From: Octopus vulgaris | Taxonomy: Eukaryota | Direction of reading: 5' to 3' | DNA length: 64,000 bases | Assembly (NCBI GenBank): GCA_951406725.2 | Contig: OX597814.1 | Location: 95,666,001 to 95,730,000, forward strand | Part shown: positions 1 to 58,139 of the stretch, piece by piece | Layout: each line of letters begins with the position of its first letter | How positions within the stretch are numbered: the first letter of the stretch is position 1 | The notes under the pieces: model-generated | Told to the model about the DNA's origin: nothing | Seen by the model: the letters and a program-made list of their open reading frames with translations, nothing else | Databases searched by the model: none | Translations under genes and position numbers: made by a program

Positions 1-3000
1 TTTATAGATGTTCCTACTAAAAGCACACCTGATGACACACACGCACACACACGTTCTAATTAATTGGCCTTTCATTAAAAAGCATTTGGCAGACTTTAAA
101 CAAAAGACAGACTTTGAACAAAATCAAAAATTCTGAATTTGTTAATACTGATAGATAGCAGCTCTACACAGTTTATTTATTTATTTAGATCTGAATCAAT
201 CATTTACAATTATTTCTATGCCGCTTTTAACACTAACCCAAAACAAAACAAAAAAGAAAAAAAATCAATAAGTATTCCTGAAGCTTAAGAGAATATCTGA
301 TAGCATATCCAGCTTCAATTCAGTCTCTATATTCTTTTGATTAATATTGAATGAATACAAAATCTATTAACCTTATTGAATAACTAGGCCATGAACACAA
401 GCAATAGTGTAGCAAAATTTAGCAGGTTCCAAGGCCAGAAAAATGTGTTCTTTCCCTCAAATGCTATGCAAGAAGAAAATTGGTAAATTCAAAATTTAGT
501 GAAGCTGAATTCTAATTATTTTGATGACATTAACAATACAATTTTAGTAAATCAATTTTAAATCTTCTTTGGCAAACAGTCATTAAAAAATACAGAAATC
601 ACCATTATGAATTATTATAATCTGTACTAAAAGTACCAAAATACCATTTTAATATTGAAACTAATTCTAATGAATTCAACGAATCAAATGTGTGTAGACT
701 GAGATGCAAATAAGTGAAATTGTATTATTAGATTACAAGAGGATGCTGAAAGCACAAAGGAAGGTTCAAATTATCTCAAGAAATTAAAAATGTAGTCAAG
801 GATTATACTATTAAGATACTACTTTCTATCTTTCAATTACAATTTGACGGCAATAATTTTTTTTATGAATGATTTATTTCTAACACACCTGTTATAATAT
901 GTAGTCAACTTTATTTGCATGCTTTGTAGGAAAACTTTTATTTATTTTAGATATATAACTACGTTTATCTGCACACAAAATGGAAAACGATTTTGACACT
1001 TTCATGAAAATGCAACATACAGAAAATTCATCTGCTATTGCCTGAGAGAGAGAGAAAGAGAGAGAGAGATCGTTTTCAAATAACCTTCATAATGGCAAAT
1101 TCAAAGAGAAAATATAGATCAAAGAAAATCATTAGGAAACGTGTTAGTTATGGAGTAAATGTGCTAGGTTTGCTGTTAACTGGAAACGAAACGAAAAAAG
1201 AAATTTTGATTAGATTTGCTTGAGATATAAAAACAAAGAGCACCTAGCATTGAAACTATCTCTTAAGGCAAATAGTATGCTTTCGGTGATCTTTTATACA
1301 CATTTGCCGACGTTGGCACGGTAGTCGACCGAATTAATTGTAACGAACCATGCAGGTCTTTGTTTCGAAGAGTATTTGAAATGTTTAGCTTCATCTTCAC
1401 GTGTATGATTAAGGCATTCATATATTCGGCATAGATTTAGTGAAATTAAAATGGCAGATAATCGAGAGATGTAGGAATAACCGATAATTAAATAATAATA
1501 ATAAAACGAAATTCATGAATACGAGAACATTTTGACAACACAACTCATGGATACAAGATGGTATATAAACATCTAGATATGTAATTCAGATGTAAAATTG
1601 CAATAGCATCTTTTAATTGCTTTATTTATGCATATCCATTCTGCTAAAAAGAAAAACCAGTTCTATAAAATTAATGACTATTAGCCCCTTTGATTGTTCC
1701 CTACTTTAAACAAATATGAACAGAAAGGGAAAACGGGAATAAAAAAAAAGCAAGATATCTTCACTTTTTATCTAATGAGACTCAGTCATCTGCTATATTG
1801 GTCTTTATGAAGAGGGAGAAGCAGAATTGAAGGGGACTAGCCCAACCCTCCTACTGACAGGATTGCTACTACTGCTGAGCTACATACTGCATTACAAACC
1901 CCCTACAAATAATTATAAGCATGTAAAGATTGTGTCGCTTGCTGATATTTTTAATTCCGAACGGGAACTATCAAGCGAATTTAGTTAAAATCAATAAGAG
2001 AGCTCGACTGATATTGTGGGGGGAAATCTGCCTTTAATTGTCATTCACAGTAACATATAAAACATCTAACTAAACAAGGCTTATGTAAATAAAAATAATT
2101 AGACACGTTCTCAGAGATTAGCAAAGGAAAATGGAAATGACAAGAATGTGCGAAGCTGAAAGAGCGTGTGAGGGGAAAAAGAAAGACTAGGGAGGGGGAG
2201 TAAGAGGAAACGAGTAGAAATAAAGGAAAACCAGGAGAGGTGAAAGAGACTGTGAGAATGAGAGTAGGATATAAAAGCATAGCGAGAACGTGCAGTAATA
2301 CTAATAGGAAATGTAGGTGAGTTAGAAATAATAAAGCCGAGAGGAATCACGGAAAAGAATTATATATATATGTGTGCGTGTGTATTTCTTTTTCGCGTTT
2401 TCTATCGTTTATGTAAACGAGAGAGAGCATGAAAGCGAGAGAAAAAAAAAAGGTGAATGACAAGGAAGAGAAGTTATAAGAAAACGAAAGAAGTCAAAAG
2501 GAAGTGAGGAAATGACAGAGCAACGGATTGTAAAGAGAATGAGAAAATTTACTTCTGAAAAGACTGAAGTGAACTGGAAAACTGGAAGGTAGAGGTTTGG
2601 GTAGAAAGACACTTTTTTCTTTTTCTTTTTTGTCTTTGGAAAACAAAAGCAACGTCGAGATGCGCTGCCGACTAATTAAGCAGGCACTGCCATACTTTGT
2701 ACTCACTTTCTAAAATGCAGGGGAAGAGGTAGGTTGACTTGCATAATAATCATACTAGTTATTTTTGATAGAGGCAGTTGTAGAGAGAAAAAAGTCTAGG
2801 ATACAATAAAAGCAACACTACGTTGCCAATAATCAAAAGCATGACAATAATTAATCTTCACTTTGAAAGTGGCATTACTGCAGATGATAAGGAGTGTGCA
2901 AGAGAAGTTGTATGCGTGCTTTATTTATTTATTTTTTTCTGAAAAGGTTAAAGTGCTCTGAAAATAGTAATGTGAAACGAGATCAGAGTAGCTTTATAAA

Positions 3001-5054
3001 GCTGAATGGAGAATATTGATCAACATCGATAAAAATGGTTGCACTTTTTTTTTTTCAAGTGATTGAGTGCATGCGTGTGTGTCTGGTTCTGTTGCGTTAA
3101 AGCAAGCAGACGTAGTTCGATGTGATGGAGCTCGTCAAATGAAACAGCATGACAGCTCCTCCTCCCATGCCAACACGTGCTGCTGCTGCTGCTGCTAGAT
3201 AATACTGACAATAAAACAAACTTTCAGCACATTAAACGTTTTTAATTTTTTTCTTTCCGTATCTAAACACAATATAATTTCCTTATATCTAATCTGTAAT
3301 GGCGAAAATGTGAACTTTTAAAGAGGTAAACCGAAAACAAAGGTTTGGAAAAGCAAAGAAAAAATAAGCGATTTCTCTCTAATCGATATTTTTTTTAATC
3401 GATAGTTTTCAGTAAACATAAACACTAAAACAAAGATTCAGATAACACTACGAATTAAACAAAAACTACAAATCAAGTGACAATGTAACCAGATTGTGGA
3501 AGTCTGGTTGTATGACATGTCAACTAAACTAGTAAGGAGTCAGTCACGCTATAACTACCTTCACCTATGCATATACATACATATAAATACACCTATCACT
3601 TATGAAAAAACATAAATATTTCGAAACAATTGTACAAAAAAGAAAAAATTGCAAAGCAGAGCATATGCAGGAATTTTTATCGCGTGTTCCTGAGCATAAA
3701 TTGCAAATCCAAGCTTAAACCATGTTGACCAGACGCAATGAGATAACGGAGAAAACAAAATGAAAGATGAGTAGTAGGCAAGGCAGAGACATTTTGTAAA
3801 GGGTAATAAAGAAGAAAGCTTAGGACAGGAAATTATTTTTGAATCCCGGAAATCTGATAGATTACAACTGCTCGGAAGTGGGGAAAAAAAAAACATATCC
3901 GTGTTGTTGAGAGGAAAAGTTAGGAAAATATCACTCGAAGTATATTGTGAAGAAGAAGAAGAAAAAAAGGAAATAACCCATTACATATCCGACAAGTTGA
4001 GAATTTTATTGGATCAGAAGAATAAACAAACTTGTTTCTTTCTTAAGACTAGATTGTATAGATAGTATACTTGGAGCTGTTAAGCTGAGTGAAACAGTAA
4101 TCAGCATTCAGTGAACACTGGAGAATGATGGTAGTGTGTATGTGTGTGTATGCTTTGATCAATCGTTCGAAAAGTGTCGTGTTTGTAGTGTTGTAAAGTA
4201 TTGTTTGCTTCAAGTGATATAATAATAATATAGTCTGTGTTATATTCTGTTATAGTGTGCAAGAGTGGCATCCAATATTATGGCTAATCCAGTGTTCTAT
4301 TTGTGTGTGCTCCATGTGATTTCTAAATAGAATTTACAGCACTCTGGTAACCTATTTAGCAGTACTAAATAGGTTAACAGTGTTGGGGAATTTTGGCCGC
4401 TGACCAGCGTTACAGAACTGATGGAAAATACTTCGGTTAAAACGCAAACAGCGGTTTCAGTAGTATTGGACAATTAATGAGACAGAAAAAGAAGAGGAAA
4501 ATAAAATGATGTAAAAAATAAAAATGTAAATACGAAGGTAAAAAAAAAAAGTGATTAGAGAGAGAACGAGAGAGTGAGAGAGAGGAGTAAAAGAAAACGG
4601 CGACAATGAAGTCTAGCGAGGAGTGGCTATAAATAGCAGTTCTTTGTCCCGGCCCACTGCAGTCGAGCGACCACTACTGGACCCTGCTTCACACACCATG
4701 GCATGTTATTGCTCCATACATACACATACACATCATAGTATATATTTGCATGAACAAACATAAATACAATCATCATTAAATTTCTTTAGAAAACTACAAA
4801 CATTATTGTTACTTCTCGCCACCTAAATTTAAGCTAAGACTTTTTTTTTTCCTTTTTACCATACAAGTTCTTACTTCCCTTCCATTTTTCGAAATAATGT
4901 GTCTCCCTTGACGTGTGTGCTTGTTCCTATGTTCTGTTTATTTTCATCTCAAAACAAAAATACACTCGCTTATCAATCACAAAAGATCAGTACCTACATT
5001 TTCTACCACTCGTTTGTTTTCATTCTGGCCAGATATGTAAAAAATCTAGCTTAC

Positions 5055-5748
5055 CTTTTAAAAATGTGGCATTTCAAGAATGCTGAAAAGGCGAGCCAAA
5101 CCACAGGGGGAAAATAGCTGCTATAATCACAATGAGAAAACTGCGAGGATGGAGATGAAATAGTCTGCAGGAACTGGTGTTATAGCTATAGAACAACGAG
5201 GAGGATCGCTAATGTTGTTACTACTACTAATAGTAGTGTTAGTGCAAATCCTAACGACAGTGCTGGCCAACACACTAGTACATTCCTAGCAGTGGAAGCC
5301 CAGATCGCAGCAGCAGACGAGAAGCACTCAGTAATAGCAGCAGCAGTATTACAGTGGATATAGTGACAGTGGGAGCACTACCAGTGAGATAGTAGCAAGA
5401 GAAGCACGTACGTTGCAGGTGGAGGACATCAGTTTTGGTAGGAGTAACAAAAGCACGGTGGAAGTAGGAGGAGGCAAAGATATACAGGAAGTAATAGGGG
5501 GAGCGTCTCCCTCCTTATTCATAGTCAAACTAGCAGTAGTAGTAGTAGTGGCTACGGCGGCAGTGGTGAACACAAGGTCAGCAGACCATATAAAGCCAAG
5601 GTCACAGAGCATGCTCAGTCGTTCGTTTTTAGCTGCCGGCAACCGACGGTACGTTCAACAACGATAATACTTTCGGATAAGACCAATACGATCGTAGAAA
5701 TTGAGTGGCAACCAACATGAACGTACCGCACCCTCGCCGAGCGACTGA
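5055..5748 (-). other. Putative alternative (largely non-coding) first exon
   Basis: Inr TCAGTC at 5748-5743, a GC-richer body, and a strong AAG|GTAAGC donor at 5055/5054 on the Kdm6a strand; YY1-like AGATGGCG at 5908-5901. Confidence 0.45.
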
Positions 5749-6321
5749 GCGTGTGTGTAAACACGTACGCTACTGAGGGACATTTTCAGTATGCGTGTAT
5801 ATGTATGCGCGTGTGTGTGTATGCATCTCTCTCTCTCTCTTACACACATTATATATATATATATATATGTGTGTGTGTGAGAGAGAGAGAAAGAGAGTGA
5901 CGCCATCTATCCCCGGGAATCATCGCTAAACAGTGGCTAGCTGCGGCGGTGGGGGTGGTGATCGCCCCCACAGTTATTTTAAGAACCACAATGGCACATT
6001 TAATATACAAAGCGTCAACAGTAAAATAAAGTAGACCAGCAGCAACCAGCGTGTATCTATTAAAAATAATCCAAGACTCATGTTTCGTGTACATAATCGT
6101 CGAATAATAAGAAAGAGATGGAAATGTTCAAAACTTTCTTCTGTTTAACTATTTAGATTTATGTTAAGAAATAAACAACTTATTCGAGAAACCAATTATT
6201 GTTATTCTGAAGATTAGTTGAGTATTACGAACACAATTACAACATCTGAAATATCACTTTCAAAAACTGTTTTGATGATTGATAAACCGAAAGCTAATAA
6301 CACTTTTACCTTTTTCTATTT

Positions 6322-6679
6322 TTTTACTTGTTTCAATCATTGGACTGCGGCCGTGCTGGGGCACTGCCTTGATGCGTTTATATAAACAAATTGCCCCAAT
6401 ACTTGTTTTCTTTTAAAGTCCGAGACTTACACTATTTGTCTCTTTAGCTGAACCGCTAAGTAACAGGGACGTAAACAAACACCAGTTGCCAAGCGGTGGT
6501 GGGAAAGAGACAGACACTCTCACACGACGGGCTTCTTTCAGTTTCCGTTCACCAAATCCATTCACGAGGTTTTGGCAGGTCCAAGGCAAAAGTACAAGAC
6601 ACTCGCGCAAGAATGCTACGCAATGGTACCGAACCTGGAACTATGTGGTTGAGCACCAAACTTCTTACCATACAGCCAA
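6322..6679 (-). mobile_element. tRNA-derived SINE (octopus OR-type), CpG-intact copy
   Basis: Head ggctgtatggtaagaagtttg...caaccacatagttccaggttc and tail cagcacggccgcagtccaatgattgaaacaagtaaaa. Confidence 0.85.
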
Positions 6680-9600
6680 GTTTTTAGTAATCACTATAAT
6701 TAAGCATATTGGATTTTTTCACCCTCGATCTTGCACAAATCTGATATATTGCTGAATTTTAAGGGGGGAAATATTCACAAAAATAATAATTAAGTAAAAC
6801 GAAGAAAATACAGGAAAACATTTTTCTGGGCCGATTCAAATATAATCATCATTTACAAACAAGTAAGGAAATTTAGATTTAATATTTCAAAATACCGCAC
6901 CTGACATAAAAAGCAACATGTTCTTCCAGTTTGTCAAAGAGACAGTAGTTGCCACTAGTTTTATTATTTGCATGTCTGAAGTGAATAACTATCGAATGAT
7001 CTTCAGTAAACTGAGAGGAATTATTTCCTATAAATGGTACAAATTCCCAGTTGTTCTCCTCTAAAACTAATTCCATTTGCATTTAGTGCCCTTGACAAAC
7101 AATGTGTTACACCTGTCTATACTATGTACAGACACCCCGCCCCTCTATTAAACTCCCAAACTTCACAGGTAATGCGCGAAAACATCTTAATACAGATGAT
7201 ACAAAACGTAAACCTTGCAAATGTTCCGCTATAAATTTACTCAATCAAAACACACGTAAGTAATTAGGAATTTGAAGAAATATCACAGAACCCTGCACAA
7301 AGCAGGTAGGAATAATTACTATTTCATTTTACCAAAAGTTAAGAGAGGTTAATAGGATGTAAACAAACGGGGAAATGAAGAAAAGTCAAGTAAAAAAAAG
7401 TTTACTAAGTTATATCCTTTGAAATATGATTCATGCAATTTAATTAATATATATATACACACACATACAAGTAGCTTCATTGAAGGATCATTTGTTTCAC
7501 ATAGATTTTCCAATACACTTTTTAATATTTTAGCCACATTCAAAGGAGATACAGATATATTACTTGTAAACTAGAAAAATATCAATGTCATTTAGCTACA
7601 CATTCTGACACTATATCATGTACTATCACATATTATCCTCTCCTAAGTCTATTTCAAAGTAAATGAGTAAACTCATTTTTCTCTTTAAATTTTACTGAAG
7701 CTTATTTTAGCATATTTTTTTTTAATTCACAAATGCTTTTCATCATATGATGTAAAAACCCATTATGATAAAATACTAGTAATTTTGATTAACACTTGAA
7801 CTACTTTTGAAAAGTTATTTAATTTAAAAACATGAACATTATGAGTTCATATTGCAATAATAAAAATAGGAAGGCTAAAAATATTCAGTGTAAATTAGAT
7901 TTTTTTAATAGCTCTAATTTTAAGACAGTAAAGAATAACAAAATGTTTTTACACTTAAGAAATATTAACTATGAAAATTAGAAATGAATCAAACCTAGAT
8001 ATATAAATTCTGGATATAAAATTAACAGTTACTCATAGTTCAATTATTTTTACTGTAATTAAGCTAAATATAAATTATTACAGGGAAATACTTCATATAT
8101 AAAAACACTTTTCACAGGAAATTGTTTCAAGATGAATAAGCAGTGAATAACATATAGTTGGTATCTATTGAATTTTCCAACAACTTATAGTGAACAAAAC
8201 AAACAATTGTCATAAATCTTGAAAACTACCTACGTGCCTCCTCCACAAGTAGGAAGTAGTAGATATATAAATATTTATACATTCACAAGTAAGATCATGA
8301 ATGTATATCCAGTTTAAGTGGATATCAAAATGCAATGTTTCAATGTTGTATATTGTCTCTTGTTAAACAATAGCAAATAACAGTGTATCAAGTACAGGAT
8401 AGATTAAAAACAGTGCAGTTTATAACTAGGATCTCATATCACAGCTGTTGTATTTCTGCTGAGAAGGCTGCAGAAAGGAAAAAAACTTCACCTTTGTCAA
8501 TTTGAATAGAAAAGGCATTTAACAATGGCATACATGCTATACAATAAGTTTGGATAAATCTCCTTACAACTGTTCAGGCTATATTTGAGGATTGTAAAAT
8601 AAGCCAAAAATGAACACAAAGTATTAATTACTTTTGTTGTTGATGAGTTTATCTAATTAAAAGAACCACTACAAAGATTTAAGTTACAGACTTCAACTAA
8701 GAATTGTCCATTTTAAACTCTTTCTGTAGCCATATTTATGCTCCATTTAATTTTTGAAACCAATAATTTAGAGAGGTTTCATTTAAATCACTTCATTAAT
8801 TAACTGGTATTTGAAACAATTTGACGAAAAGTTCTTATATAAAATGACGGAAAGTTTAAAATTTATATATGAACAGATTAAAACGATTTTTTTTTTTGTA
8901 TCACTGATACAGAAGTGGTCTCAAAGGAAGTTTGTTCAGCAAAGTCTGGTAGTAGTTACATGTACATTGAGTAGATTGACTAATGTATTTTCCAGCATAG
9001 AAATTGAATTTTGCAGACCAAAATCAACAGCCAAAACTGGTAGGTTAATTTATACACCAAGACGCCTTTAGAGGACCAAAAATTTCCTGTGAAATGCAGC
9101 AAGATTTGGAAAGATGTGTGAATATTTACATTATATACTACACTGACTTATATGCCGGAAAATATGGTACACAGCTCTCTTGTTAGATCAACTGCAATTG
9201 GAAAATGACCAAATTCAATGCATAGAGAAGAAATGGTTGTAAACTTGGTTTTATGTATTCCTATGCAATGAAAATAGCCACAAGTGATACATAGAATGAA
9301 TGAGAAGACAAAACTAAGTAAACTGCAATCAAGAGACATTGTGAGTAACCTTGATGATGGCTTGCTTGCTCTAGCAGTTTAGTGAAGAAATAAAAGTGAT
9401 CTGTTAGGCTAGCTAATAACACTAATAATAATTAATGACTAGAGCTGAGATCAAAGTAAGCAAGTGACTAAAGTAGCTTTGATAGCTACCACTTGTTGGT
9501 AAAAAGAAAAATGAATTTATGCTTGTCTGTTTTTCAATATTATGTGCTAAGATGTCAATGGTAATCTATCTTCTTGACATTCCTAATCCAGAACTGGAAA

Positions 9601-37369: not shown

Positions 37370-37630
37370 AGGCTGTGTGGTGAGAAGCTTCCCAACCACA
37401 TGGTTCGGGATTCAGCCCCACTCTAGCACCCTGGGCAAGTGTCTTTTACTATAGCTTGGGGTTGACTAAAGCTTTGAGAGAATTTAGTAGACAGAAACTG
37501 AAAGAAGCTCAGCGCGCGCGCGTGTTACTCTCCCCTTGCTTCGACATTGAGTGATAGTTGAAAACAAATATCACCATCATGTGAGTGGTGTTCATTTCCA
37601 ATCTGAAAACATTTCTTGTCATAGGAAAAT
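37370..37630 (+). mobile_element. tRNA-derived SINE (OR-type head, different body)
   Basis: ggctgtgtggtgagaagcttcccaaccacatggttcggg; interrupted by the RTE tail at 37633. Confidence 0.7.
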
Positions 37631-37632
37631 AT

Positions 37633-37880
37633 TATCATCATCATCATCGTTTAACGTCCGTTCTCCATGCTAGCATGGGTTGGACGGTTCGACCGGGGAT
37701 CTGGGAAGCCAGAAGGCTGCACCATGCTCCAGTCTTATCTGGCAATGTTTCTACAGCTGGATGCCCTTCCTAACGCCAACCACTCCGTGAGTGTAGTGGG
37801 TGCTTTTTACATGCCACCTGCACAGGTGCCAGGCGAGGCTGGCAACAGCCACGGTCGGATTGGTGTATTTTACGTGCCAC
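37633..37880 (-). mobile_element. RTE 3'UTR copy (young)
   Basis: Near-identical to 48637-48880. Confidence 0.85.
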
Positions 37881-38109
37881 CGCTCCCTTGGAAACAGGTG
37901 AAGGTTGATAACAAGAGCATCCTGCTGTAGAAAATTGGTTTCAATAAATTCCAATTGACCCATGTGAGCAGGGAAAAGTTGACATTAAGATAATGATGAT
38001 GATGTATTCAAACTGCCCAACCCATGCCAGCATGAAAGATGGGCATAAAATGATGATGAATACAAAGCAGCTATCATACAGCTAAGAATAATGGAATAAA
38101 ATTACTCAC

Positions 38110-38168
38110 CAATGAAAAGCCCCAAAATGAAAGTACACAGTCCCAAGACCATAAAGGAATGGAGCATC
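38110..38168 (-). CDS. KDM6A: Kdm6a/Utx coding exon 5 (DAPFLYGLGTVYFHFGAFHW)
   Basis: ttgattttag acceptor and TG|gtgagt donor; 59 nt; matches human [20 protein letters not shown]. Confidence 0.95.
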
Positions 38169-38619
38169 CTAAAATCAAAAAAATACATAAATACTTTTAA
38201 ATTTCTACATATACATTTCATATTAATCTTATTTTCTAATTACATAAATGTTTCAAACAAAAATGAGAAAAAAAATTGTTTCTTTCATACTTTCTATAAT
38301 ATTTTCACCATATTTTTTTACTTATTTTCATTCACTTAATTCAATACTTAATTTCTGTATAAAATATATTGGTTTCCAGAATAAACATATTTTTGGAATC
38401 ATTTTTAAATCTTTGCTTTTAGCATAACTTTTACCCAGTAAAAAGTGGGAAACCTGAAACGATATCGACATCTGCTTGCAACTACAAAGGCAGCTAAAAT
38501 AATTAACAAAAGCATATGATATGCTAACAAGTCATAACTGCTTGTATGTGACAGCTAGAGTTTGTTTTTTGAGTGTGTGTGTGTATATGTGTGTATGTAT
38601 ATATATATATATATATATA

Positions 38620-39012
38620 GTTGTGATACCTGTGCCGGTGACACATAAAAAGCACCATCCAAACGTGACCAATGCCAACCCTGCCTCGAATGGCTTCTGT
38701 GCTGGTGGCACATAAAAAGCACCATCCGAACGTGGCCGATGCCAGCACTGCCTTGACTGGCTTCTGTGCCGGTGGCACATAAAAAAGCACCAACCGATCG
38801 TGGCCGATGCCAGACCCCTCTGGCACCTGTGCAGGTGGCATGTAAAAAGCACCCACTACACTCGCGGAGTGGTTGGCGTTAGGAAGGGCATCCAGCTGTA
38901 GAAACACTGCCAGATCAGACTGGAGCCTGGGGCAGCCCCTGGCTCCCCAGACCCCGATCGAACCGTCCAACCCGTGCTAGTGCGGAAAACGGACGTTAAA
39001 TGATGATGATGA
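38620..39012 (+). mobile_element. RTE 3'UTR copy inserted in a TA microsatellite
   Basis: ggcgttaggaagggcatccagctgtagaaac...ggacgttaaatgatgatgat, similar to the 48637-48950 tail. Confidence 0.85.
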
Positions 39013-48636: not shown

Positions 48637-51062
48637 ATCATCATCATCGTTTAACGTCCGTTCTCCATGCTAGCATGGATTGGACGGTTCGACCGGGGAT
48701 CTGGGAAGCCAGAAGGCTGCACCAGGCTCCAGTCTTATCTGGCAATGTTTCTACAGCTGGATGCCCTTCCTAACGCCAACCACTCTGTGAGTGTAGTGGG
48801 TGCTTTTTACGTGCCACCCACACAGGTGCCAGGCAAGGCTGGCAACAGGCACGGTCGGATTGGTGCAATTTATGTGCCACCGGCACGGAAGCCAGTCGAG
48901 GCGGCGCTGGCATCGGCCACGATTTGGATAGTGCTTTTTACGTACCACCAGTCCAGGGGTCCTGGCATCTGCCGGGTGCCAGTCATAGGATTGGTTCAAT
49001 TTCGATTTCACTTGCCCCAACATGTCTTCGCAAGCAAAGGGGGTTGGCATGGGTGCCTGTCGTCGGATGAGGTTCGATATCGACTTCGCTTGCCTCAACA
49101 GGTCTTTGTGTCCAAGGGAGGAAAGGCATGCATAAGTGGGCTGGGCTCACTTGTCCTGCCTGGTCTTATCACGTACAGCATATTTCCAAAGGTCTCGGTC
49201 GCTGGTCATTTCCTCAGTGAGGCCTAAAGTTCAAAGGTCGTGCTTCACCACCTCGTCCCAGGTTTTCCTGGGTCTACCTCTTCCACGGGTTCCCTCAACT
49301 GCTAGGGATTGGCACTTTTTCACACACCTATCTTCATCCATTCTCGCCACATGACCATACCAGCGCAATCATCTTTCTTGCACACCACAACTGATGCTTC
49401 TTAGGTACATTTCTCTCAAGGTACTAACGCTCTGTCGAGTATGTACACTGACATTACACATCCATCGGAGCATACTGGCTTCATTCCTCGCGAGCTTACG
49501 CATGTCCTCAGCAGTCACGGCCCATGTTTCACTGCCATGTAGCATGGCTGTTTGTACACATGCATCATACAGTCTGCCTTTTACTCTGAGCAAGAGGCCT
49601 TTAGTCACCAGCAGAGGTAAGAGCTCCCTAAACTTTGCCCAGGCTATTCTTATTCTAGCAGTTACACTTTCAACGCACCCACCCCCACTACTGACTTGGT
49701 CACCTAGATAACAGAAGCTATCAACTACTTCTAGTTTTTTCCCCTGGAAAGTGACGGAAGTTGTTTTCTGCAGATTTTCGGAGGTTAGTGCTCCCGAGCA
49801 TCTGCCACATACAAAAACTATCTTCCCAGTTAGCCTACCTTTGACATTGCTGCACCTCTTATGTGTCCATAGCTTACACTGGGTACATCTTATAGAGTTT
49901 CTACCTACACCTTTTCTACAGATCGAGCAGGGCCATCTTCCTGAAGACATTTGTGGATTGTCTACCTTCCTACTTATTAGTACTTTGGTTTTAGTTGGGT
50001 TGACTCTAAGGCCCCTCGATTCTAAACCCTCCTTCCACACCTGGAACTTCTCCTCCAGTTCTGATAGTGACTCAGCAATTAGAGCAAGGTCGTCAGCATA
50101 GAGGAGCTCCCAGGGGCAACCTGTCTTGAATTCCTCCGTAATTGCCTGGAGGACTATGATAAATAGGAGAGGGCTGAGTACTGAACCCTGGTGGACCCCA
50201 ACCTCTACTTTGAATTCTTCTGTGTACATGTTGCCAACCCTAACCTTACTTACGGCATCTCTGTACATGGCTTGCACAGCCCTCACCAACCATTCATCTA
50301 TCCCTAGTTTCCTCATTGACCACCAGATAAGGGATCGGGGGACCCTGTCAAAGGCTTTCTCCATGTCAACGAAAGCCAGGTACAGGGGCTTATCTTTGGC
50401 TAGGTATTTCTCCTGCAGCTGCCTTACCAGGAATATAGCATCAGTGGTACTTTTCCCTGGCACGAACCCAAACTGCATCTCATCTAAACTAACTCTCTCT
50501 CTAATTAGTTGGGCTATGACCCTCTCCGTAACCTTCATTACCTGATCCAACAGCTTGATACCTCTGTAATTATTTGTATCTAAAGCGTCACCTTTACCTT
50601 TGTAGCAGTTGACTAGTATGCTGCTACACCAGTCATTGGGTATGACTCCTTCGTGTATCACCTGGTTGACTATACGGGTGACTAGGTTATAGCCAACACT
50701 GCCAGATATTTTGAGCATCTCTGCAGTAATTCCTGATGGGCCTGGGGCTTTCCCTGTCTTCATGCTTCTAATTGCTTTAACTACCAAAGAATTTTCAACT
50801 CGGATGGCTGGTCCCTCTGTTGGGTTGACATTCGGCAGACTCTCTTTATCCCATTCATTTTCTTTATTCAGCAACCTTTCATAGTGGCATCTCCAAACCT
50901 CTCTCTTTGCATCCTCATTTAGCGCAAGTGAACCATCATCCATGCGAACACACTTCTCTCCTACCATATCACGATTCTCTCTCACACACTGTCTTGCAAC
51001 ACGAAATACCTCAAGTCTTTCATCCTCATGGCTCAGAACATTGGCAAATTTTTTCTTATCCA
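48637..51062 (-). mobile_element. Young 5'-truncated RTE-clade LINE (RT ORF, 3'UTR and (GAT)n tail)
   Basis: 564-aa ORF with RT motifs (KAFDRV, QGSVLSP, YADD), the C-terminal RGRPRKTW of RTE, and a 3'UTR ending ggacgttaaacgatgatgat. The endonuclease domain is missing. Confidence 0.95.
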
Positions 51063-51063
51063 C
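49147..51063 (-). pseudogene. RTE reverse transcriptase ORF, disrupted near the C-terminus
   Basis: Premature TGA at 49369-49371 (probably CGA>TGA). The frame continues LRWYGHVARM...RGRPRKTW through a second TGA to the natural stop at 49147-49149. Confidence 0.85.
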
Positions 51064-51995: not shown

Positions 51996-52045
51996 CTTCC
52001 AGGTTTCCTGATTAGAATAATAATATTTCTGATAAGCTGATAGAG
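51996..52045 (-). CDS. KDM6A: Kdm6a/Utx coding exon 4 (ALSAYQKYYYSNQETWK)
   Basis: ttttatttcag acceptor and AAG|gtaatt donor; 50 nt; matches human ALSAYQRYYSLQSDYWK. Confidence 0.95.
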
Positions 52046-53203: not shown

Positions 53204-53345
53204 CTTTACTATATTGTTCAAGAAGTAAATGTACATGACCCAATTCACGGTAAATATTAGCAATAGCGGGATCCTTGCCTTTTGATGAATCTTTCGTAAG
53301 CAGAATTGCATGTTCTTGGATTTTCTGTTGATAATATATAATACC
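53204..53345 (-). CDS. KDM6A: Kdm6a/Utx coding exon 3 (GIIYYQQKIQEHAILLTKDSSKGKDPAIANIYRELGHVHLLLEQYSK), start of TPR region
   Basis: cctatttcag acceptor and AAG|gtaagt donor; 142 nt, phase 0 to 1; ELGHVHLLLEQYSK resembles human QLGHFNLLLEDYPK. Confidence 0.95.
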
Positions 53346-55710
53346 CTGAAATAGGAAATGTTTTACTTTATTTTATAACAGAATTTCAAGTGGCTTTAAA
53401 TATATATATGGCAACTAAATCAATACAAAGAATGTTTAAGTATAGATTATCAGAAAAAAATAAGTTAAACTATAGATTGAGCTGACGTATGATCATAGGG
53501 TCTAGCCATGACCATCCCATCTATTTTCAGGCAATCTAAACAGGACTAACTACATTATCCAATGCTTCCTCCAATTTTAAGATGATATAGTGCAATATCA
53601 AGGGAAACTTAGCTATTATTGCTAACAAGTCGATCGACCATTCAATAACGTTTCGATCTTAAATCTAAACTCAGTCGTAAACACCGTGGTAAATATGAAA
53701 AATCATCATTGGAGGAGTTTCAAGATTTACTCAGTGTGGTCCTGCTTCTTGTTAATGACCCTCGCTTATTTATCCCTATTCATTTAACTACCATATATTC
53801 TCACTAAATGCTCAGAGGGCCATTATTTCGACAATATTTCTTTTGAGTTTTATTCGAAATTGTTGCTGGATTTACGCTCAATAACAAATGAAATGTCAAA
53901 AATAAAGGAAATTATAATATTTAATAATGCAGTTTCAGAAATCCCCAACCTTGTTCAAACGTTATGATACTAATTATTTTAGCCAACGTGTCTCAAAAAT
54001 TCGGTTAGTATAAGGTTAAGATATCTGAGTTCTGCTAACACGGAAAGGACCTTATTTGCGCCTATCTTACAACGAAGATTACATAACATACTATTCAACA
54101 ATTCCGAAATGAATAAATTCAAACGAAAGAAAAGACCCCCACCACGCATGCCTTTATTTTCAACAATATATAAACAAGAACTTCCTTTTTCATTGTTGCA
54201 CAAATTCTGAAATTAAAAACTTTTTATATCTAGTTTTTCAAAAGATGGGCCTCTGGGCCTCTGTATTTTTCGGTTTACATGTAAAAACAGGAATTTCAAA
54301 CAATAACTGTGACAAGAAGATTGCTCCAATATTTTAAATTAGTGCTTAGAACAGTTAATATTATTACCAATAAAAATGTTCAATCATGCTCTTCACCAAC
54401 ATACGAATTCGATAACAGGTGACGTAAAAGAAAAAAAAAAAAGAAAAATCCTACGCGAATATCCTCAAGTTTGTTCCTTAACCATTTCCAATATTCCGTC
54501 ACACTTTGTCACCTGCTTATTAGTTAGGATTATTCATCATCAATTCCAAGATTGATCATTTCCACCGATAATAAATGCAATAAGTTATTTAACAGATATA
54601 TTTAAATACTGGAGACATGAAAATTTTAAATAACTGAGGATTTTTTTTTTAAAGAAAAAAGTGGGGGCACAAAAGGTTTTTCTATCTGATTTCGGTCTAG
54701 AACCTGTCAAGAGTGACTGCAGTTTTTAAAAAAATATCGATAATATACTGCATCCTTTGTTAATTTAGTGTTAAGCTTCAATTTAAACGGGTTTAAACTA
54801 CGTAAGGAATCACTTAAAATATAAGTTTGTATAATATAATTAAAATATTTCTCATTTAAATTGAAATTAATAAGCAATACAAAAAGCTTGACAAAAACAA
54901 TTTCAACTGGTGTGACAACTCTGTAATAATAATTTAGAAATATGACCACTTTTAATTTGCTGAGTTTATTCGCACTTAAATTTCGAAAAATTAACGATAC
55001 TCTTTTTGAACATAATATAGTGCAAGCATACTACGAATTTAAACATTGAAGAATCTTAATTAAATCTGAATATAAACCCCAAAGTTTCGCTTCGCGTGTA
55101 ATTTATTCAGTTAGAGACAAAGATAACCAGAAAGGAGGGAAACTAAAGACAGTACAACTTTTTTTTAAATAAGGCGCAATTAAATTCTCGACCATTTGTG
55201 TAGGCGGGGGTGGGTGGATAGTTTAAACAAATATGATCAAGAAAATAGAAATTTGTGACCAAAAATGCTAACCTTTGTGTTTACAGTGTGACAATAGCAG
55301 GCAATCGAACGAATTCAGCTTTAAAGAGAAATTTGCTAGTGAGACAACTGAGTAGGGTTGAAATTTAAGAGACAGATGGAGACTGAAAGATGAAATATAT
55401 GAAGATTTCAAAACGATGTGTTTACGTTTTTGCTATTTTAGAATGGCGCCTCCCTGTCAACAAATAATAAATGCTCCCTAACACTCTAGCATGGCATTTC
55501 GCCAGTAAGAAAACTTACAAGATCGGAAAAGTAATCGTTATAATTGCCGCCTATAGTTTTATTCACTGACGGTTTTGTTTAGTGTATCGCCACAAACATG
55601 TTGGACCTTTCCGAAAGAAGATTGGAACTTATCATATTCCATAAGGTGAAATTTTTAAAAATGTAAGACGTAGAAAGCATCCCAGCACCTAGAATAACTG
55701 CACAACCTAC

Positions 55711-55774
55711 CTTCTCAAGAAGACGTCTCTTCGGTTGGTCACCGTCATCCAGCTGAATGAATCCAAACAGGCAA
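55711..55774 (-). CDS. KDM6A: Kdm6a/Utx coding exon 2 (CLFGFIQLDDGDQPKRRLLEK)
   Basis: ttttttcag acceptor and AAG|gtagg donor; 64 nt, the size I recall for human exon 2; in frame with exon 1; LFGF motif as in human RLFGFVRF. Confidence 0.95.
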
Positions 55775-56055
55775 CTGAAAAAATAAAATAAAACACCTTG
55801 CTCTTTATCTGAACCGTTAAACTTATAAGAGGAAGCGTCAAAAGCAGGTGACAGAGAGAGTCATTCAAAACGTGAAGGTATCCAGAGCAAGGTAGATATC
55901 GTGGGCCGAACCACATGACACACAGAGCATACTGACCTAAGAGACGCAGAAAAGGACAGATAGACTGATAAACCTTATTGCGTGTTTGAGTAAATAGCAT
56001 CATTACATGAAAACCTCAACAGAAAAATATCACAAAGTTGATAATAATAACAAAC

Positions 56056-56138
56056 CTATCAATTTCTAAAAGGTTTTGACGCTCTTCCGCCGTCAAAACC
56101 TGGTCAGCCGTGCTTTCGGTGAGCGTTTCTGTCCCCAT
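56056..56138 (-). CDS. KDM6A: Kdm6a/Utx histone H3K27 demethylase, coding exon 1 (MGTETLTESTADQVLTAEERQNLLEID-S)
   Basis: ATG in good context (aaacATGg) at 56138. The translation LTAEERQNLLEIDS resembles human UTX LTAEEREALGGLDS. Ends in phase 2 at an AG|gtttgt donor. Confidence 0.93.
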
Positions 56139-58139
56139 GTTTCATTAAATACAAAGTAGAAACCCCAAGATAGAAGACTTTAAAAAAAAAAAAAACAGGA
56201 TGTAATCACTGAGCTACTGCTAGTTTAACCTCGACCTCTCACCCTTTAGTAACAACCAATCGTACGCTTTGCTTCAAATACAGTTAAAATCGAGCTTGGC
56301 ATTTGTTAACGGAACACCGAGTGTCGTTGTAAATACTGCGCTACATCAACGCGCAACACAACTGTTTGATATTGTCAAATTTATTTATAATAATAATAAT
56401 AAAAAAAAGTAGTTTTTAATAAAATTAATTATGCACTTTTTAAAAAATTGTATTAAATTATTTATAATAAAACGTAATCATTCATTATTTAATGCTAATT
56501 GTCATTGTCACGTATGAGTTGATTCTAGTTAAGATGACTAATTGCATTATCAATAACGTGATTGTTAACGGATGTAATTCCAATCGCACAAATAAACCTT
56601 GGTGGGCTTCGTAGTTTGATAATAATGTCGTTTTCTTCTATCTTATGTTAAACACGCTAAATATAAATGTATGGGAAAATACTGACATTTATCTGAATCT
56701 GACTACCAGCTACCATTAATTCTTCAACTCAACTTTTTGCGCAAAAGATTCTCTGCGCAATAAAATAATCATATTACTAAATATTCAACATTTTGTTTGA
56801 CATACCCAACGTTTCTGATACCAATCCTAATTCATTTATGTATGTTAATCCCTCATACTAATGTGAATGATGCCATCTCTGGTTTCTATCCTCCTCAACC
56901 TTCCACATATAGATGTCATCTGAAAGGAATCTAGAAACTTTTCATTAAAATTAGACTACTTCTTCAAAAAGAAACCTCGTTTGAGCCCCCACTTCCATAT
57001 CCTTAGCTTACTTTAAAAACTTCATACAATCTTTCTCACATAAAGTTGCAACTCTTTAGAAACAACGTTCTCGTCAACAAGCAGAAGTCTTATCACAAGA
57101 TTGACATTGACCTCACCATCCTAGGGATAGGTGCTGGCTCTCCTCCTCGTACTAAATATCTTATTTTTATTTTAGTCTTCATATAGTTCACTTTTTTTTT
57201 TTTTTTAGTGATAGATGGGATAGTGTTGATGTTTATAGAGATACAGCTACCAAACATATCCACTTGGTCTCTTAGGCAAGCTACTATATTTATTCATGTA
57301 AAATTCAACTAGATCTCTTTTATTACAAAATTAAAATCAACGAAGTCATCTGGTAAGCTTACGAATATCATAAATGCTCTTACAGTTAATTGTTCCTGTA
57401 CATCTAGTATAACAAAAATTGTCTGTCAATCTTTTGGAGACCCGATTATATATTTTGAAAGAATGTGTACATCATATTGAGTTCCTACTTTTTCCCAACA
57501 AATTAAGAAAGTCGCTTTTCAGATAACATCAACATGGGTCAACTACCTTTTCATTGCATTTGTGATGGGGATTAACAAATGAGTATCTACAACTCAATGC
57601 AGAACAGATACTTCTAGGAGCTTCATCTATAAAGCACCAATTTTTTTAGTTTTCACACTTTGCAAATATACATTGACAGAAGATATACACACATATGCAT
57701 ACATGCAAACTGACGTGGATTCTCCAAATTCAATCTATTAGTGGCACAATGAAGATTTGTAAGACATCCCATAAATTCTCCATCTGAGATTCTAATGTGA
57801 ATAGATGCACACACTTAGATGTATGCATTGACAGTTTAACCAACACACCAACTCAAACACATATTTAGAAATAGTGGGAACATTCTTAACCCAAAAAGTC
57901 TTGTCACTTTGTTAGCAACCGGCTTGAACTCTCTCAAGAACTTAAATAAAGTTCAAAGAAAAATCATACATACATACAGGATGAATGTCTAATGGCGTAA
58001 ATGGAATAGGTATGTCTTATAAGTGGTCAGTTTGGTTTACCACCAAAACTCTGACTTGAACTGCAACTGAAAAGAAGTTGTTAAGGTGGCCTATCAAAGA
58101 TGGATATATCATCATAGAGTGGATATACACACACACATG

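Follow-up and report, generated by a model that had tools for sequence, protein, structure and literature searches.

An exon in a CpG-retaining island of intron 5 is spliced to exon 6 of octopus Kdm6a and likely marks a second promoter for a predicted shortened UTX

The Kdm6a locus and the CpG-retaining island in intron 5

The window analysed here, a stretch of 64,000 nucleotides of Octopus vulgaris DNA (G000:C1:95666001-95730000), contains the first exons of the H3K27 demethylase gene Kdm6a (Utx) and, within intron 5 of this gene, a CpG-retaining island at 960..7300. An exon in the island is spliced to Kdm6a exon 6, and we consider it likely that the island is an unmethylated second promoter, the mRNA of which is predicted to yield a shortened but catalytically intact UTX. 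An internal promoter at this place had been proposed by a sequence-only reading of the window, which the present analysis follows up.

The exon at 53,345-53,204 is identical to an Octopus bimaculoides protein, and the gene is therefore octopus Kdm6a/Utx, transcribed from the minus strand. A gene model built with 110 kb of neighbouring sequence and cephalopod homologues comprises 28 exons, with GT-AG borders at every intron, and a product of 1,251 amino acids. Intron 5 (83,462 nt) is by far the longest intron of the model, and the island lies within it, as the sequence-only reading had placed it. The minus-strand exons in the window are the coding part of exon 1 with Met1 (56056..56138), exon 2 (55711..55774), exon 3 (53204..53345), exon 4 (51996..52045) and exon 5 (38110..38168), which by alignment encodes G122, the counterpart of human G137 in TPR2. 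Exon 6 is located outside the window, also on the minus strand (G000:C1:95620647-95620527). The lengths of exons 5 to 11 (59, 121, 55, 35, 94, 127 and 99) equal those of human KDM6A. According to the model and to Pfam searches of cephalopod orthologues, the full-length protein carries eight TPRs, the JmjC domain and the C-terminal helical and GATA-like domains. The KDM6-specific Pfam families PF21326 (150 of 216 candidates scored) and PF21322 each gave one match in the genome, both within Kdm6a. This genome search thus found a single KDM6 locus, as the proposal of two isoforms from one gene had presupposed.

The island has an observed-to-expected CpG ratio (o/e) of 0.81, versus 0.18 and 0.17 for intron 5 on its two sides, and it contains 170 CpG where the intron rate would give 36 (Poisson P about 3e-58). 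The local counts of the sequence-only reading, 13 CpG in 5641-5760 and none in 7381-8220, were reproduced exactly. The TpG/CpA excess is 1.15/1.10 inside the island versus 1.33/1.32 in the rest of intron 5. Across 174 kb, 3-kb windows with a CpG o/e above 0.7 were found just at the island and at the main Kdm6a promoter, where a second CpG-retaining island (53500..57400, o/e 0.92) serves as an internal positive control. Since genes with a methylated body and an unmethylated promoter form a large class in O. bimaculoides, according to the accessible text of PMC9476566, it is reasonable to infer from the CpG counts that the island is DNA that has long been unmethylated. The small exon 5 has a CpG-richer repeat insertion on either side (37500-39000), with a 67-nt tandem array at 38630-38817 in the same interval.

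Self-similar repeats cover 5.9% of the island, all of it a short interspersed element (SINE), and 28% and 11% of the intron upstream and downstream. The low transposon content that had been noted for the island is therefore real but not distinctive, as several other 6.3-kb windows of Kdm6a are equally poor in repeats. The SINE-like copy (6322..6679) keeps 15 CpG and was also found, with both flanks, in run X2 (one of the sequencing runs introduced below), which has a diverged organism label. At these 15 sites, 17 sibling hits show TG/CA in 88, CG in 19 and another state in 44 of 151 cells. With a non-CpG divergence of 11.9%, in the middle of the sibling range (5-17%), the island copy is not simply young. 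Its proposed use as an internal control for lack of methylation mostly holds, but one sibling outside any island, in intron 11 (about G000:C1:95603095-95603483), keeps 17 CpG in 389 nt at 9% divergence, for which we have no explanation.

Two open reading frames (ORFs) of reverse-transcriptase type, assigned by eye to long interspersed elements, are present in the gene: one of 564 codons in intron 4 (49372-51063, minus strand) and one of 876 codons in intron 25 (about G000:C1:95574425-95577052).

Splicing of an island exon to Kdm6a exon 6

Six sequencing runs of the 24 listed were examined, namely four contig sets (X1, organism label A; X2 and X3, label B; X9, label C) and two raw-read RNA runs. 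The splice donor AAG/GTAAGC (5049..5057, minus strand; last exon base 5055) is the top-scoring donor within 900-7500, and just six sites in intron 5 score as high. A junction from 5055 to exon 6, which removes an intron of 50,407 nt, is present in the contigs of all four runs, which come from four studies. The contigs leave the genome at 5054/5055, and the 28-30 loose letters at their ends match the opening letters of exon 6 exactly. In a wider mapping, contigs of both X1 and X2 end at 5083, which matches the branch of 31-letter words expected at the donor. The donor singled out by the sequence-only reading is thus both strong and used, its prediction being confirmed to the base, and the target is the next Kdm6a exon and no other gene. 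Because the GT-AG removal is precise and the assembly holds no second copy of the exon, spliced RNA is the plain reading. A retrocopy or duplicated exon was considered and rejected, as the assembly search gave only the locus itself and two low-complexity hits of 38 nt.

The contig of X9 is 4,506 nt long and extends 3,083 nt beyond the junction, which fits the 3,070 nt between exon 6 and the polyQ repeat of the last exon; judged by this length, the X9 transcript likely runs through all JmjC exons. Contig depths (junction 10.8/52.5/8.2 versus unspliced 4.8/19/5.4) were not used to rank the forms.

The alternative non-coding exon (minus strand) has an exact 3' end and extends at least over 5055..5793, since X1 contigs are colinear with the genome at 5054-5286 and 5301-5793. 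It may reach about 6,470 or further. The 957 letters of the X9 contig above 5520, which were not seen, would take it to about 6,477, inside the SINE, and the X2 contigs break at 6451-6461, also inside the SINE. Word sharing for X2/X9 was 0.55/0.34, versus 0.39/0.26 expected if cover stopped at 5520, a mere hint of more colinear sequence.

Two motifs had been put forward for the start of this exon. The initiator (Inr)-like hexamer TCAGTC (5743..5748, minus strand) is at chance level (3 seen versus 1.7 expected, P 0.22), and an X1 contig is colinear through the site to 5793, so that 5748 was rejected as transcription start. The YY1-like 8-mer at 5901..5908 (minus strand) does sit where it had been reported, but its significance is borderline (1 seen versus 0.06 expected, P about 0.05, for a motif chosen after the fact).

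An exon that lies within an intron and is spliced to a downstream host exon, and promoter-like CpG retention in a depleted gene body, are both expected of an alternative promoter with its own first exon. We infer that the island likely contains such a promoter, its first exon being non-coding, and that transcription begins inside the island, probably at dispersed sites. It is improbable that transcripts from the main promoter instead include the exon as a poison cassette, or as an intermediate in stepwise splicing of the 83-kb intron, and that the island owes its existence to something else, for instance an enhancer. When scored with a matrix derived from the introns of Kdm6a, acceptor-like sites do occur at 7292, 6900, 5140, 5120 and 6751, the first four being moderate matches, and the X2 and X9 contigs have upstream letters that were not seen. 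These best upstream candidates nevertheless all lie within contigs that show no branch (all four runs for 5140 and 5120; X2 for 7292, 6900 and 6751), although contigs drop rare variants. Moreover, the X9 contig enters exon 6 without a competing branch, which would be unlikely for a decay-bound form, and a cassette exon needs no 6-kb promoter-like island. The cover of X2, near zero at 7426-8178 just outside the island, is a weak hint in the same direction, as contigs show presence only.

Below the donor, X2 has continuous unspliced cover at 2390-5083, thinning beyond about 2390, which might represent nascent RNA, internal priming or a short product that is not spliced. The same cover, on contigs from which the strand is not readable, would suit the view that the island mainly represents a nested or antisense gene or a long non-coding RNA, the splice to exon 6 being a by-product. 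We give this view even less credence than a cassette exon, as the sole junction observed within 4960-5520 leads to Kdm6a exon 6, and none of the eight stop-to-stop ORFs scanned in the island matched a Pfam family above the cut-off. A scan of the island against Rfam gave no hit at the gathering score, and all 15 weak hits fall on the microsatellite at 5789-5905.

The predicted short UTX and truncated isoforms of other species

When the island exon and exon 6 are read as a joined frame, the last stop in the Kdm6a frame upstream of the junction is at 5180..5182 (minus strand), and no ATG follows until Met161 in exon 6, in agreement with the sequence-only reading. The product predicted from Met161 comprises 1,091 of the 1,251 amino acids and lacks the N-terminal 160. 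An AlphaFold model of a mussel orthologue, made with a 40-sequence alignment, has a mean predicted local distance difference test score (pLDDT) of 71, with mostly 80-94 in the TPR blocks. It contains eight helix pairs, and Met154, the equivalent of Met161, falls at the end of TPR3 helix A (144-157), followed by five complete helix pairs. The short form is accordingly modelled to lose the preceding helices, TPR1-2 and most of the first helix of TPR3, and to keep TPR4-8 and JmjC. In agreement with retained TPRs, the O. bimaculoides UniRef entry P0003, which starts at the exon-6 Met, scores above the Pfam cut-off for TPR_1. The JmjC exons are intact downstream of the junction in the gene model, while the G137 equivalent, encoded by exon 5, is absent from the short form. 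The earlier proposal of a non-coding first exon giving a UTX without its first TPRs thus stands as far as the non-coding exon and its splice to exon 6 are concerned, whereas the product is predicted and would keep TPR4-8. No solved UTX TPR structure was matched by sequence in the Protein Data Bank, and a self-built leave-one-out TPR profile was uninformative.

A TPR-less product starting at Met457, which has a perfect start context, was also considered and rejected, since 11 ATGs between Met161 and Met457 make scanning unlikely. The cuttlefish-type database protein P0012 starts at the Met457 position; its contig could not be seen. The octopus protein is without some 150-165 amino acids of the disordered middle region found in cuttlefish-type orthologues (P0005 about 484-650), and motif searches for this stretch between exons 15 and 16 (about G000:C1:95591298-95595161) gave no match.

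To compare the N-termini of other species, 102 RefSeq KDM6A isoforms were collected; four large clusters contributed 15 of 213, 15 of 29, 15 of 75 and 15 of 3,160 members, and non-RefSeq rows were left out. The following counts apply to the matches listed. Full-length forms account for 61 isoforms and N-truncated forms for 41. Among the latter, the KDM6A sequence of 17 sets in at the exon-6 border behind an unrelated N-terminus, and 13 start with the exon-6 Met; of the remainder, nine start at exon 10, one at exon 9 and one elsewhere. Ten of the 14 mollusc genera have isoforms of the exon-6 class, as do three of the six other invertebrate genera (a sea cucumber, an amphioxus and a spider). In vertebrates the class appears in one of 15 shark and ray rows (a ray) and in one of 13 tetrapod rows, the latter a short and probably incomplete bird model. 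A number of the Met-start proteins are listed under 2-4 accessions each and hence have more than one 5' leader. One alternative N-terminus is similar across two scallop genera and another is identical across three Mytilus species, and the oyster and Mya forms, which are without the exon-6 Met, bear N-termini of their own. Clustering of isoforms at the exon-6 border is what an old intron-5 promoter predicts, and as isoforms of many molluscs begin at this same border, the arrangement is likely old, to judge from these predicted proteins.

P0003 was not counted in this class, because its N-terminal part forms a separate entry (P0016) that ends after exon 5, so that an assembly break can explain its start. 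The cuttlefish-type protein P0014, which starts in exon 6 on a contig of 4,985 nt, is suggestive but uncheckable.

A second truncated class begins at or just inside exon 10, before TPR5-6, and is found in oysters, pond snails, periwinkle, amphioxus and shark (P0139, P0140, P0171, P0176, P0183, P0218, P0220, P0232 and P0248). No 3-kb CpG island is present at exon 10 in octopus Kdm6a.

Proposed mechanism and comparison with known systems

The proposed mechanism starts from what was directly observed, namely the island, the splicing of 5055 to exon 6, the upstream stop in frame and the single KDM6 locus. Promoter chromatin at start sites within the island would keep the germ-line DNA unmethylated while the gene body decays to TpG/CpA, and the mRNA would proceed through the JmjC exons. 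With somewhat better than even probability, ribosomes would reach Met161 by leaky scanning or by re-initiation past the upstream ATGs. As cited in PMC12442641, G137V and D336 mutations of human UTX are reported to impair MLL3/4 binding, G137V being unstable, and the accessible parts of PMC7608747 and 10.64898/2026.08.28.747954 describe binding of the N-terminal part of UTX to MLL4. By analogy, weaker binding of the short form to MLL3/4-COMPASS is plausible because the G137 equivalent is lost; that binding is indeed weakened and that the short form would in consequence differ in stability, location or partners we judge to be slightly short of an even bet.

Several observations weigh against this interpretation. 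At the RNA level, the RNA status of the four contig runs is a tool's guess, and the direction of transcription rests on the GT-AG junction. In the two raw-read RNA runs (6% of each), depth over 4916-5417 was 0.1-1.3 per direction and no junction row was found among the matches listed (376 further rows), so that expression in these two runs is low or tissue-restricted. In the wider mapping, X2 depth drops to 5.8 and 0.24 over 5418-5919, at odds with a colinear contig of 781 nt, and the two mappings disagree on this upstream part, so that its 318 letters cannot be taken as colinear. At the protein level, the start context of Met161 is weak (T at -3, C at +4), the stretch from 5748 to the donor contains seven ATGs (ten counting from 5850), and exon 6 contains an upstream ORF (uORF) of eight codons (G000:C1:95620591-95620563), the stop of which overlaps Met161. 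The short form keeps the D336 equivalent, which is likewise implicated in MLL3/4 binding. Among the species compared, the exon-6 class is absent among the matches listed for Saccostrea, Physella, Littorina, Ylistrum, Lineus, Scylla and Cloeon. The database isoforms are automated models whose transcripts are not visible, and Met-start forms can also reflect exon skipping or assembly gaps. As a separate observation, the overlap of stop and start at Met161 could permit re-initiation.

The upstream ATGs, the uORF in exon 6 and the weak context of Met161 would also be expected if the internal promoter were real but its RNA, being untranslated or decayed, made little or no protein, with a regulatory role (transcriptional interference, stress-only translation) or none; the unspliced contigs of X1, X2 and X3, which run beyond the donor, fit this as well. 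We regard this alternative as unlikely, though less so than a cassette exon or a nested gene. The number of ATGs in the exon is at or below the expectation from composition (7 versus 9.2), starts near the donor would leave just 2-3 uORFs, and the scallop and mussel N-termini at the same border, being common to species or genera, suggest selection at the protein level. A second promoter whose mRNA makes a shortened UTX is our preferred interpretation, held with fair confidence.

A bolder version, which we consider doubtful, is that the Utx intron 5 promoter is ancestral to molluscs and possibly to bilaterians, and that it yields an active H3K27 demethylase uncoupled from COMPASS. The division between KDM6A and KDM6B would then pre-date the vertebrate duplication at the isoform level, and its trace could be read from CpG decay alone.

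If a natural TPR-trimmed isoform exists, a single KDM6 gene would supply two kinds of H3K27 demethylase, and the short form would reveal which of the TPRs contact COMPASS. Studies of molluscan Utx that measure expression or apply knockdown at the level of the gene might then confound two products. In addition, sequence alone can point to unannotated promoters in invertebrates, by way of CpG decay in their methylated gene bodies. Among the papers listed in the literature searches, where subscription journals are largely outside coverage, no description of a KDM6A intron-5 promoter or of an isoform starting at exon 6 was found; PMC9359700 does not mention Kdm6, and PMC8549169 and 10.1101/2022.12.19.520968 hold no content bearing on the isoform. 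The octopus form is therefore a new and apparently conserved variant of a mechanism that is itself ordinary and known.

Close counterparts are the short KDM6A isoforms predicted automatically in RefSeq for molluscs and other bilaterian animals (among them XP_041357798.1, XP_067669128.1, XP_021378462.1 and XP_071838895.1), which likewise start at the exon-6 border or the exon-6 Met but are predicted proteins only, with promoters and first exons not visible. In human KDM6A/UTX, isoform variation affects exons 12-17 according to the accessible text of PMC10296593, a term search of which gave no alternative promoter or first exon, whereas the octopus variation removes the N-terminal 160 amino acids. 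UTX acts both catalytically and as an MLL3/4-dependent scaffold, with the TPR region as principal contact in the latter role, in the parts of PMC10296593, PMC7608747 and PMC12442641 available to us. Annelids possess one kdm6 gene (PMC12153100, in the part accessible).

The sequence-only reading had called the proposed isoform JMJD3-like, a description that was not supported. KDM6B/JMJD3 is, like the short form, a JmjC H3K27 demethylase (JmjC being retained in the short form if the length-based linkage is right), and the short form might by analogy also sit outside MLL3/4 complexes. However, KDM6B is a separate gene without a TPR region, as described in the accessible text of PMC10296593, while the octopus short form is predicted to keep TPR4-8 and comes from the same locus as Kdm6a. 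In KDM5B-NTT, a downstream transcription start and a downstream ATG also give rise to an N-truncated histone demethylase (PMC11241480, in the part available); this form loses JmjN and is inactive, whereas the prediction for the short UTX is that the catalytic domain remains and interaction repeats are lost. Finally, the delta-N transcripts of kdm6b and jarid2 in the dragon lizard have probable intronic starts and are 5'-truncated while keeping JmjC. According to the accessible part of PMC9020659, they differ in gene, in being temperature-induced, in their partial intron cover and in not being prominent in two other reptiles; in octopus Kdm6a, by comparison, the spliced exon is a dedicated one and the CpG island is long-lived.

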